A stretch of DNA of 29,443 bases, from contig JAJRZD010000013.1 of assembly GCA_024275415.1 (NCBI GenBank), positions 1 to 29,443 on the forward strand. Direction: 5' to 3'. Under the pieces are notes generated by a model. The model searched no databases and was not told the origin of the DNA. It was given only the letters and a program-made list of their open reading frames with translations. Source of the stretch: an archaeon. GTDB lineage: Archaea > Asgardarchaeota > Thorarchaeia > Thorarchaeales > Thorarchaeaceae. Position 1 is the first letter of the stretch. Each line of letters begins with the position of its first letter. Shown one piece after another: positions 9,861 to 12,528 of the stretch. Position numbers and translations under genes: made by a program.

Positions 9861-10820
9861 TTGTTCATGTCTGAAAAACAGCTTCTGAAACTTTCAATGG
9901 AATTAGAGAAAGCAGAGAATTCCGCAAGAATCAGACAGTTTGAGAAGGCTGCAAAGCAATACAAGAATCTGATCAAACTGGCTCAAAAGGTGAACCCTGG
10001 AATTATCAATGACTTGACTTTCCTTTCACTTCTATATACAGTGAACCACGATATTTCTCGAAGACAAGACCCATTGATAACAGGAAGCCTTCATAGTTTA
10101 GATACACTGCAGAAGGATTTAGCATACTCAACAATTACGATGGCCCTTCCAGGAGGATTCTTTGGCGAGATAAATACAAAGAGAGTGTTTGATGAAACAC
10201 GGGGTATTGTCCTGATGGATCGTGGGAAGAGAGAGAGAGACCCAGCACTGCTTTTACCAGCCATTAAGAGATTCTTAGAAATCGGTAAAGAGCAGCTCTT
10301 TTTTGGTAGGTATGTGGGCATAATAGAACGAAGAATAAGCGGAACTCGTGCCGCTCTTGAATGTGAGGCTGAAAGCCATATTATACGGGCTGCGGAGATA
10401 GCGGATGAAAACCCTTCAGGTGCAATTCCTCATTACATGCTGGCCGTTAGAGCATATCGGGCTGCTAGACGAAGTGACTGTGAAACCAAGTATAGAAACG
10501 TGCTTATTGGACTGAAAAAGGTTGGAAAATGCTGGTTCTGCGGTAGGTTAGTACAGGGAGCTAATCATTTCCGTTTACTAAATTCTTCGATATCGCAGTA
10601 TTTTGTGAATCTTCTTCATGAAAACAAGGAAGATTTGAGAGTCTATAAGGACAGCGCAGTCGTTGCATGTATACCATGTTCTGCTGCTATTGAACAAGAA
10701 GCACATAAAGTGGCTAAACAGTATCATGAATGGACAGTTAGACAGTTTGAGGCAGTTCGCAATGATATCCGTAAGTTAGCAGAAGCAATTAATAGATTAT
10801 CTCAAGGAGGAAAACGATAA
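9861..10820 (+). CDS. Helical-repeat (TPR-like) protein with Zn finger and C-terminal coiled coil (probable start ATG 9867)
   Basis: Amphipathic helices, CWFC...CIPC Cys pairs, heptad-like tail; GGAGG RBS. Confidence 0.8.
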   Translation: MFMSEKQLLKLSMELEKAENSARIRQFEKAAKQYKNLIKLAQKVNPGIINDLTFLSLLYTVNHDISRRQDPLITGSLHSLDTLQKDLAYSTITMALPGGFFGEINTKRVFDETRGIVLMDRGKRERDPALLLPAIKRFLEIGKEQLFFGRYVGIIERRISGTRAALECEAESHIIRAAEIADENPSGAIPHYMLAVRAYRAARRSDCETKYRNVLIGLKKVGKCWFCGRLVQGANHFRLLNSSISQYFVNLLHENKEDLRVYKDSAVVACIPCSAAIEQEAHKVAKQYHEWTVRQFEAVRNDIRKLAEAINRLSQGGKR

Positions 10821-10821
10821 G

Positions 10822-12528
10822 GTGGGTGATGGGATGAAAGTGTATGCTTGTGGTAATTGTGGAGGCTCCCTAGATATTGACAAAAAAACATCAGTAATTG
10901 ATTGTGGCTATTGTGGATACGTGAATGAAACAACATCAATGGAAGAGGATCTCAACAAATTCAAAGAAGAGGTTGCAAATTGGTTATCAGGATTAGGAGC
11001 AGTTGGGGGAAGCTCTGTTGATATCGCAATGCGTAAACGGTATTTTCAGGACTCGATCTATCCAAGTATCCTTACCGAGTTCAGCAACTTGATTGGTGAT
11101 ACAGAGGATGTTCTTGATTTTCCCACACTCTACCTGAGGATATTCAACAGAATTGCAGAATTGAAAGCTAAAACCAAGTGGAGCCCGCAGCAAGGGAAGC
11201 CCCTGAAAAATTTCGCTAGAAAACTGGAGTCGGAGGAATTTCTTGGTTTTGTTTCGGATCCTGAAAGTCAGTGGTTAGTGCATGAGCTACGATTCAGGTC
11301 ATTGAGTATTCCCATGCTGATGGATGTGATCACCAATGCAAATGACCCAAACACTCAAACATTCATCCAGAGCAGTAACACGTTGGCTACTTTAGGAAAG
11401 GAAGCAGAAAATCTTGCGAAGGTAGCCAATACGCGGACTGTTGATTGGAAGTCCTATTATGATATGCTTTCAAGACGACTAAAAGTTACCAGCGAAGCAT
11501 TCAAAACATTCGCAGACACTGTGGAAACAGGACAACCGGCAGACAACAAGTGGTTAGACGCACAAATTTCAAGTCTCGTTGAAATACGCCAAGAACTTGG
11601 TGAGATGCCCTCGCTCTCAGTTACAGATAGAGTCTTTTTAGAATCGGGACTGGACAATGACATTAACGCACTAACGGCGGCCTTTAATGTCACAAATTTG
11701 TATCCTAGAATAACAAAGGTCAAGTTTCAGAAGTATATGACTGCAATTGAGGCACTTTCAGATGCAACATTATTCAAGATGCCACAGGAAAGCGTTGACC
11801 ATCTGTCGTGGTTTGAATTTGGAATGGATAGTAAGAAACTATCCTGGTTCCTCTCGATTCTCCATACTACAATTAATAGACAATTCTTCCAGATTTTCGC
11901 AGAACCAGCAGATATTGGCATGTGGATAAAGAAACAGAAAAACGTCAGGGGATACTTTCTGTATCCGTTTTACTTGTCACGAATAAAGACTATTCTCAAA
12001 TCTGGATTCCTTCTTTGGAAAAAAGGGGCTGAAGAAACATTCTTCTCGCTATGTGATGCGGCATTCAACCTATCCACGCAGTTTCTCAATAATGATTTCC
12101 CGTCATTAATGACACCCGGATTCAAGAAAATAATCGGATCAAAACGGGAGCGAGTCTTGCATTCATTAATGGACTCCGAGGGAAAACCCAAACCTGAAAA
12201 TTGGGTGGTACTACCTCCAACAGTCACGCCATCTGACATCCAGTTGCTTTATACGACAGCACATAATTTCTTAGAAGAGGCGGAGTTGTCCATCGGACAG
12301 GGAAGCATGATACGTGTTCCTCGTTCATACAAGAAGAAAGGGTTCGACCCAGGTAAAGTCAAGGCACTCTCGGTTGAGGTGTCACAGATTGTGTACTTGC
12401 CATTAGCCATCACAAGCAAAGGTCCATCATTGTTAGGTCAGCATCTCGGGTTGGATTGCGACCTCAGACATCGTGAGCTGCTTTGTCACGCCTATATGGG
12501 CTTTCTCTCGTCCATTAAATCGACTTGA
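10822..12528 (+). CDS. N-terminal Zn-ribbon protein of unknown function (probable start ATG 10834)
   Basis: YACGNCGG-x-IDCGYCG at the N-terminus, long helical middle, alpha/beta C-terminus; AGGTGGGTG RBS directly after the upstream stop. Confidence 0.8.
   Translation: MGDGMKVYACGNCGGSLDIDKKTSVIDCGYCGYVNETTSMEEDLNKFKEEVANWLSGLGAVGGSSVDIAMRKRYFQDSIYPSILTEFSNLIGDTEDVLDFPTLYLRIFNRIAELKAKTKWSPQQGKPLKNFARKLESEEFLGFVSDPESQWLVHELRFRSLSIPMLMDVITNANDPNTQTFIQSSNTLATLGKEAENLAKVANTRTVDWKSYYDMLSRRLKVTSEAFKTFADTVETGQPADNKWLDAQISSLVEIRQELGEMPSLSVTDRVFLESGLDNDINALTAAFNVTNLYPRITKVKFQKYMTAIEALSDATLFKMPQESVDHLSWFEFGMDSKKLSWFLSILHTTINRQFFQIFAEPADIGMWIKKQKNVRGYFLYPFYLSRIKTILKSGFLLWKKGAEETFFSLCDAAFNLSTQFLNNDFPSLMTPGFKKIIGSKRERVLHSLMDSEGKPKPENWVVLPPTVTPSDIQLLYTTAHNFLEEAELSIGQGSMIRVPRSYKKKGFDPGKVKALSVEVSQIVYLPLAITSKGPSLLGQHLGLDCDLRHRELLCHAYMGFLSSIKST

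Follow-up and report, generated by a model that had tools for sequence, protein, structure and literature searches.

Two adjacent genes of an archaeon of the family Thorarchaeaceae (Asgardarchaeota), here called G1 and G2, encode what are, from their predicted structures, most likely unannotated zinc-binding scaffold proteins. They lie on contig JAJRZD010000013.1 of assembly GCA_024275415.1, positions 1 to 29,443 of which (29,443 nt, forward strand) make up the window analysed here. From gene order in distant homologues we propose, with moderate confidence, that G1 and G2 act together as soluble adaptors of a YdjI-type SPFH assembly that would also include a third protein, F3, beneath the cell membrane. 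An earlier sequence-only reading of the window had singled out the interval 9861-12528 as a candidate new system, with a role in defence, envelope stress or membrane remodelling. Since the pair shares an operon with an SPFH gene in distant archaeal relatives, a role in organising membranes is more probable than one in virus defence.

Gene structure and predicted folds

The interval is filled by two open reading frames on the same strand, with 13 nt between the stop of G1 and the start of G2. Homologue alignments, together with the sequence itself, shift both starts slightly from those first read. For G1 the ATG at 9867, which has GGAGG 7 nt upstream and gives the N-terminus MSEK, is preferred over the TTG at 9861; for G2 the ATG at 10834, giving MKVYACGNCGG, is preferred over the GTG at 10822. 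Each gene is present as a single copy in the genome of the window.

AlphaFold2, given the family alignments, folded both proteins confidently, with a predicted local distance difference test score (pLDDT) of 93.6 and a predicted template modelling score (pTM) of 0.80 for G1 (values for G2 are in Table 1). The G1 model has a TPR-like helical solenoid (residues 3-217) with an inserted beta-hairpin at 89-103, followed by a four-cysteine zinc ribbon, KCWFCGRLVQG...CIPC, in which CWFC occupies 222-225 and CIPC 268-271 (C222/C225/C268/C271). It ends in one predicted 45-residue helix (269-314). The helical repeats, the CWFC and CIPC motifs and the coiled coil that had been read from the sequence of G1 all find their place in this model. 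G2 opens with a zinc ribbon (residues 1-32) whose cysteines are C6/C9/C24/C27. Residues 33-348 are modelled as helical, first a long helix and then a body, of which approximately residues 45-300 came out as Bro1-like in a fold search. An alpha/beta domain with predicted strands of 18-19 residues completes the protein (349-564) and holds the YFLYPFY and IVYLP segments, so that the three-part layout first described for G2 is retained.

Neither protein could be placed in a known family. Among the window proteins, Pfam gave no family for G1 or G2 and, as the sequence-only reading had also found, no enzyme family or motif; the best rows were at chance level (DM14, E 0.066; RNA-polymerase-type ribbons, E 0.15). 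For 56 members of the G2 family and 14 F3 proteins Pfam returned sub-threshold zinc-ribbon and coiled-coil rows only, the commonest for the G2 family being Zn_Ribbon_TF. Searching PDB sequences with hidden Markov model profiles of G1, G2 and F3 yielded nothing beyond ribbon rows of about 30 residues. Structure prediction followed by Foldseek, proposed earlier as a check, was informative in its first half: both monomers fold confidently, but for neither did Foldseek give a match at E <= 1e-3 in PDB or in BFVD (viral models). In the ESM Atlas, scores were <= 0.85 and there was no model. The possibility that G1 and G2 are paralogues was ruled out by hhalign (probability 3.5%).

Conservation and distribution of the pair

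Close homologues of G1 and G2 were found in Asgard archaea only (Thorarchaeota, Sifarchaeia and Freyarchaeia/Jordarchaeia by the names used in the sources). In whole genomes, the pair occurs in 7 of 41 relatives and in one of the six other genomes of the genus. Across 301 genomes of the phylum it is carried by 7 of 77 in the window's family (the genome of the window included), by the single genome of a sister family, by all six of one Freyarchaeia-like genus, and by none elsewhere. In all 12 Asgard genomes whose loci extend far enough to judge, G1 and G2 share a strand and G1 is the gene immediately upstream.

The family extends well beyond these close homologues. An exhaustive search with the G2 profile collected 143 proteins, approximately 90 of which are 450-650 amino acids long, fall into four subfamilies and have the entire G2 architecture. 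The four cysteines, D63, R67, F71 and P77 are invariant across 56 G2-family members, with W50, R215, P378, G391 and A409 nearly so, and a profile built from distant members only matches the G2 of the window at E 1.2e-50. One subfamily was traced to a Thermofilaceae metagenome-assembled genome and a Sulfolobales one. A full-length G2 member is present in 9 of 401 sampled Thermoproteota genomes, and in all nine a G1-like gene lies immediately upstream (G1 profile, E 1e-23 to 1e-28). A metagenome scan with a single protein gave no relative. Metagenome contigs were found instead by a degenerate DNA pattern for the zinc knuckle of G1, KCWxCGRx[VI]QG; all 41 contigs that it retrieved encode G1, and G1 is followed by G2 in 31 of the 32 that could be evaluated, at intergenic distances of -3 to 31 nt. 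A KCWxCGRx.QG motif, a second CxxC and a DPxxA motif recur in the G1 proteins of the two phyla, with C222, W223, C225, R227, C268 and C271 invariant. In another Asgard family, one locus (L121, G028:C8:18894-20883) encodes, 5 kb from an F3-like gene, two tandem proteins of about 330 amino acids whose N-terminal ribbon is G2-like (E 1e-6 to 1e-8); this locus is possibly another and shorter form of the module.

Judged by these sequences, G1-G2 is an ancient, always-adjacent pair. The constant gene order and short spacing in two archaeal phyla are consistent with the earlier suggestion of an interacting pair, and the homologues are linked, not universal and without a match to any known housekeeping family. 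A check of co-occurrence and defence-island enrichment had also been proposed; G1 and G2 did occur together in all evaluable genomes and in 31 of 32 contigs, but no defence context recurs around them. Besides the pair itself, no neighbour is common to unrelated Asgard genomes. The Asgard neighbours comprise ABC ATPases, hydrolases, a peptidase, surface beta-helix proteins, MutS, a P-type ATPase, GH31 and isoprenoid-lipid enzymes. At three Thorarchaeota-like loci (L015, L016 and L082; family f1, genera g11 and g5) the pair has large surface proteins of the FG-GAP or NosD beta-helix kind, with TSP3 repeats, as neighbours, and at two of them isoprenoid-lipid genes (polyprenyl synthase, UbiA, geranylgeranyl reductase) adjoin it. 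As this is synteny among relatives, the three neighbourhoods are not independent evidence.

An operon with an SPFH gene in distant archaea

In eight of the nine Thermoproteota loci the pair forms the last two genes of a four-gene operon, F3-SPFH-G1-G2. The SPFH protein of this operon has about 330 amino acids, matches Pfam Band_7_1 at E ~1e-31 and carries a C-terminal SHOCT domain. F3 is an unannotated helical protein of approximately 170-190 amino acids with the invariant motif PG..GY..KE..R..D...R. The same arrangement is seen on the metagenome contigs, where the SPFH gene is directly upstream of G1 in 16 of 27 evaluable cases and F3 precedes SPFH in 14 of 15. All nine pair-bearing Thermoproteota genomes have a Band_7_1 gene, compared with 183 of 401 overall, although kinship among the genomes limits the weight of this figure. 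We found no description of the F3-SPFH-G1-G2 operon in the literature searched (full text).

No transmembrane-like segment was found in F3, SPFH, G1 or G2. In 10 contigs of one clade (L125-L128, L134, L140, L143, L155, L156 and L158), the gene of a small protein of 106-116 amino acids with four transmembrane segments adjoins the end of G2 in translational coupling, and a related transmembrane protein of 138 amino acids occupies the same place in four Thermoproteota genomes (L101-L104). The four-segment protein is a candidate for the membrane anchor of the operon. For F3 itself, a shared motif region with the D..R..F segment that follows the ribbon of G2 was considered and dropped (probability 0.8%), and a relationship to PspA or Snf7 gave no signal either in the F3 profile search of PDB sequences or in Pfam.

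SPFH and F3 genes in the genome of the window and in other Asgard genomes

Outside the window, on contig C30 of the same genome, there is one F3 gene (C30:54050-54628, 186 amino acids) and a single Band_7_1 gene (C30:56759-57685), the only one of the genome, whose product has a C-terminal zinc ribbon. A metallo-beta-lactamase-fold gene lies between them (L108:6069-9686), and this locus is conserved in Asgard archaea. F3 is found in 22 of 24 genomes of the window's family and in several other Asgard families. As F3 is near-universal in the family, the SPFH/F3 half of the system is resident and the G1-G2 half optional. One good Band_7_1 gene, and no more, is present in each of the pair-bearing genomes tested. 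On a 1.2-kb contig of another genome of the same Asgard family (L007, G018:C25:1-1249), a G2-like zinc-ribbon gene, truncated where the contig ends, has a start that overlaps the stop of a second F3 paralogue; there, F3 and the G2-like gene adjoin without an intervening SPFH or G1.

Proposed role and comparison with known systems

We envisage that G1 and G2 are made from one translationally coupled operon and that the two proteins, soluble and predicted to bind zinc, most likely join in a heteromeric complex. This complex would most likely be an adaptor, and an optional one, for a cytosolic YdjI-type SPFH (Band_7_1) assembly with F3 at the inner face of the cell membrane, where it could plausibly recruit or organise a complex under the membrane in membrane maintenance or stress. 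Where the four-segment protein is present, it could anchor the assembly in the membrane. In the genome of the window, SPFH and F3 are the residents, encoded on another contig, and G1-G2 came separately on a 6.8-kb low-GC insertion.

By analogy, the closest characterised system is pspA-ydjGHI (samGHI) of Bacillus subtilis, in which YdjI, a soluble Band-7 protein, is brought to the membrane by YdjH and the zinc-ribbon protein YdjG and in turn recruits PspA (PMC8581546; PMC9239133; PMC11237479). The sequence-only reading had loosely compared G2 with zinc-ribbon proteins at SPFH/PspA loci, and this weak comparison proved to be the best lead, as distant homologues of the pair are in an operon with a Band_7_1 SPFH gene. 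The two systems are alike in having a soluble SPFH protein of the Band_7_1 type (the copy in the genome of the window is likewise a Band-7 protein with a C-terminal zinc ribbon). As in Bacillus, the SPFH gene of the distant archaeal loci is in one operon with the gene of a protein whose N-terminus is a zinc ribbon, here G2, and with those of other non-enzymatic partners, and a subset of these loci also has a small membrane protein after G2. They differ in that no PspA was found in the archaeal operon, that its partners G1 and G2 are soluble and without transmembrane segments, and that in the window the pair is not adjacent to the SPFH gene. YdjG, described as two ribbons, an NTF2-like domain and a transmembrane segment, and YdjH, described as a TPM domain, are both unlike G1 and G2 in architecture.

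Taken alone, G1 also resembles LapB/YciM and generic TPR scaffolds (BamD, KLC, Rap) in having a TPR-like solenoid followed by a four-cysteine zinc module. Foldseek related G1 to generic TPR rows only (BamD, KLC1 and APC subunits, at probabilities of 0.9-0.99), and LapB is among the rows listed. The E-values are nonetheless 5e-3 or weaker and no Pfam TPR model matches; G1 differs further in its beta-hairpin insert, its 45-residue terminal helix and its obligate partner gene.

Several observations weigh against an SPFH-linked role. G1 and G2 have no transmembrane segment of their own, and YdjG and YdjH serve as analogues rather than as demonstrated homologues. Canonical PspA (PF04012) was not found above cut-off in five carrier genomes (G000, the genome of the window; G060; G302; G429; G437), with positive controls in 9 genomes, so that the Bacillus analogy is incomplete. 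Neither SPFH nor F3 is adjacent to the pair in the window or at any other Asgard locus, and F3 is near-universal in the family while the pair is rare. The SPFH link of the Asgard subfamily is therefore indirect, drawn from co-presence and from distant homologues (the SPFH-linked subfamily is approximately 15-25% identical) instead of from co-variation, and our confidence is limited accordingly.

Alternative explanations

The absence of SPFH and F3 neighbours at Asgard loci, the patchy pair alongside a near-universal F3 and the low identity would be expected if the Asgard G1-G2 pair were uncoupled from SPFH and formed a self-contained two-protein scaffold of another cellular process, to which the distant SPFH operon is not transferable; that the SPFH gene is not upstream of G1 in 11 of the 27 metagenome contigs fits this explanation as well. 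It has to account for the retention of the whole architecture and the key invariant residues across subfamilies, for the single good Band_7_1 gene of every pair-bearing genome tested, and for the F3 gene joined in an operon with a G2-like gene in the same Asgard family (G018). With these points in mind we regard an uncoupled scaffold as unlikely, though it deserves to be kept in view. If the two genes were a new system of anti-virus defence or abortive infection, borne by a mobile island beside CRISPR-Cas, this would explain the low-GC insertion with its empty site in congeners, the patchy distribution, the presence of CRISPR-Cas 2.75 kb away and a DNA methylase near the pair at one other locus. 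Against it, PADLOC returned no match for 10 proteins, distant members included (chance-level rows only, E 0.007 or weaker). No nuclease, NTPase, protease, transmembrane or other effector-like domain was found, and a scan of viral contigs gave no relative. CRISPR-Cas is nearby in the window only, the block has no integrase, and the neighbours at more than 20 other Pfam-annotated genome loci are metabolic, transport or surface genes. The pair is, moreover, present in six of six genomes of one genus and sits inside an SPFH operon in a distant clade. The defence role offered by the sequence-only reading is thus improbable. Less credible still, and in our view very improbable, is that G1 and G2 are zinc-ribbon nucleic-acid-binding regulators of neighbouring genes, with ribbons like those of TFIIB or RNA polymerase subunits. 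The G2 ribbon weakly resembles those of TFIIB, RPB9 and RpoP, but these matches lie far below threshold and cover only about 30 residues; no helix-turn-helix or other DNA-binding domain was found, and as the neighbours of the pair vary, there is no conserved target gene.

It is also conceivable, if quite unlikely, that G1 and G2 are Bro1/MIT-like adaptors of ESCRT-III-type polymers (Snf7/CdvB; ESCRT, short for the endosomal sorting complex that is required for transport). This would be compatible with the SPFH link, as YdjI recruits PspA, an ESCRT-III relative, in Bacillus. The suggestion comes from VIA, a structural aligner independent of Foldseek, in which the top matches of the helical domains of G1 and G2, over about 200-220 aligned residues, are Bro1 proteins (ALIX, HD-PTP, BROX and yeast Bro1, the eukaryotic binders of CHMP4/Snf7) at Z scores of 8.4-11.0. 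The best match of G1 residues 1-219 was to ALIX (Z 11.0, 195 residues aligned, root-mean-square deviation 4.5 A), with HD-PTP and Brox both at 10.4. G2 residues 43-297 gave 10.2-10.6 to Brox, 9.1-9.7 to HD-PTP, 8.4-8.7 to ALIX and 8.8 to yeast Bro1, and Bro1 domains made up 11 of the top 14 rows for G2 in a second look. Two weak Pfam hints, the DM14 row given above and MIT at E 0.004 in a Thermoproteota G1, point the same way, and Snf7 genes are present in the genome of the window. These Z scores, however, are below the ~13 that unrelated helical repeats reach by chance, and the Bro1 matches tie with BamD, generic TPR and designed repeats, so we treat the resemblance as a lead and not as a finding. 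Both Pfam hints are below cut-off. Pfam BRO1 is absent at E up to 1 (window proteins, and the 25 most frequent families listed for the 56 members), the profile search found no PDB Bro1 chain at E up to 10, and Foldseek gave nothing significant. G1 and G2 also lack sequence or profile similarity to Bro1 proteins, a V domain, a proline-rich region and linkage to ESCRT genes, and their zinc ribbons and the alpha/beta domain are not Bro1 features. The Snf7 genes of two carriers (G000 and G060) are unlinked to the pair, lying on other contigs or ~0.5 Mb away; Snf7 presence in Thermoproteota is uninformative, as the Pfam model stayed below cut-off even in the Sulfolobus control. Asgard 'Bro1' homologues have been proposed as ESCRT-III regulators (Eme et al. 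2023; PMC10307638), and the listed entries that were examined are small (75, 85 and ~150 amino acids, and a partial one of ~180 by coordinates), are tagged PF18097 and are not the G1/G2 family. Makarova et al. (2024) report that Bro1/Alix orthologues are not identifiable in Asgard archaea.

Genomic surroundings of the pair

The sequence-only reading had also held that the pair is cargo of a mobile, AT-rich block between duplicated gene ends, close to a CRISPR array, and the surroundings bear this out (Table 1). In three genomes of the same genus (G002, G003 and G004) the orthologues of the membrane-protein gene at 8450-9499 and of the mutase gene, which 6.8 kb part in the window, lie 43-211 nt apart, with conserved synteny beyond. 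As these three congeners have an empty site, the pair sits on an insertion. The block carries G1, G2, a convergent gene for a membrane/zinc-ribbon protein, an orphan gene-end copy and a gene for a multi-transmembrane protein. Its inner 4.3 kb (9500-13810) has a GC content of 42.3%, compared with 47.0% for the genome (standard deviation 2.1), which is in the lowest 3% of 4.3-kb windows. No integrase was found among the proteins of the block. An empty site in relatives, deviant GC and a flanking repeat are the marks of an integrated or accessory island, and with the patchy occurrence in the family they agree with the notion of mobile cargo. The two repeat copies are direct repeats of 113 nt with 74% identity, and the orphan copy still translates as IFNEIMLG.M.KPIRRV..AFGARELRIETV. 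The diverged repeat has the look of a scar left by recombination, not of a recent target duplication.

Table 1. Features of the window (positions are those of the 29,443-nt stretch)
Feature	Position	Strand	Description
G1 (gene 1)	9867..10820	+	317 amino acids; open reading frame, start, ribosome-binding site, homologues, AlphaFold2 model
G2 (gene 2)	10834..12528	+	564 amino acids; open reading frame, start, AlphaFold2 model with pLDDT 86, pTM 0.85; belongs to a superfamily with members of 500-650 amino acids
Inserted block, ~6.8 kb	9500..16305		Missing from three same-genus genomes; GC 43.3% vs 47.0% for the genome
Left repeat copy	9309..9421	+	Within the intact 3' end of the membrane-protein gene
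Right repeat copy	13697..13809	+	Orphan, diverged copy of the 3' end of the membrane gene
Convergent cargo gene	12547..13626	-	359 amino acids; not conserved beside the pair elsewhere
Cargo gene	13895..16240	+	781 amino acids, multi-transmembrane; not conserved beside the pair elsewhere
Flanking backbone gene	8450..9499	+	349-amino-acid multi-transmembrane protein; orthologues at the empty sites
Flanking backbone gene	16306..17994	-	Methylmalonyl-CoA-mutase-family enzyme
CRISPR array	5288..7115	+	25 repeats of 37 nt, 2.75 kb upstream of the pair; neighbour, outside the module

The product of the convergent cargo gene has an N-terminal hydrophobic segment, a Thr-rich linker and a second hydrophobic segment, a middle part that is beta-rich by composition, and a C-terminal DUF7577-like zinc ribbon (E 0.0015). 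This gene and the gene of the 781-amino-acid protein were considered as parts of the module and dropped, neither being kept beside the pair in other loci. The backbone membrane protein encoded at 8450-9499 weakly resembles the PspC/LiaI-LiaF transmembrane region, at a level below threshold (E 0.011), and genomes of the genus each contain 1-5 matches to its family, the best with E-values between 1e-118 and 1e-4. Further upstream, cas3/6/4/1 genes precede the CRISPR array. Two consecutive repeat-spacer units at 5434-5581 are 100% identical, so one spacer is duplicated.

Implications

SPFH proteins such as stomatin, prohibitin, flotillin, HflK/C and YdjI organise membranes in all domains of life, and to our knowledge almost nothing has been reported on their partners in archaea. 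The two unannotated families G1 and G2, with F3 as a third and a Band_7_1 SPFH protein, make up a conserved archaeal operon of four to five genes whose members extend over Thermoproteota and Asgard archaea, and the adaptor half, G1-G2, can move between genomes by itself. There is a slim chance that, as prokaryotic Bro1/MIT-like adaptors, G1 and G2 link a YdjI-type SPFH scaffold with ESCRT-III polymers (Snf7/CdvB). If so, Asgard and TACK archaea would have an SPFH-adaptor-ESCRT-III axis like the YdjI-PspA axis of bacteria, and the pair would be an archaeal structural forerunner of the eukaryotic Bro1 domain, with a bearing on the origin of eukaryotic ESCRT accessory proteins. For the SPFH-linked role that we favour, the operon supplies testable candidates for the adaptors and the anchor of an archaeal sub-membrane scaffold.

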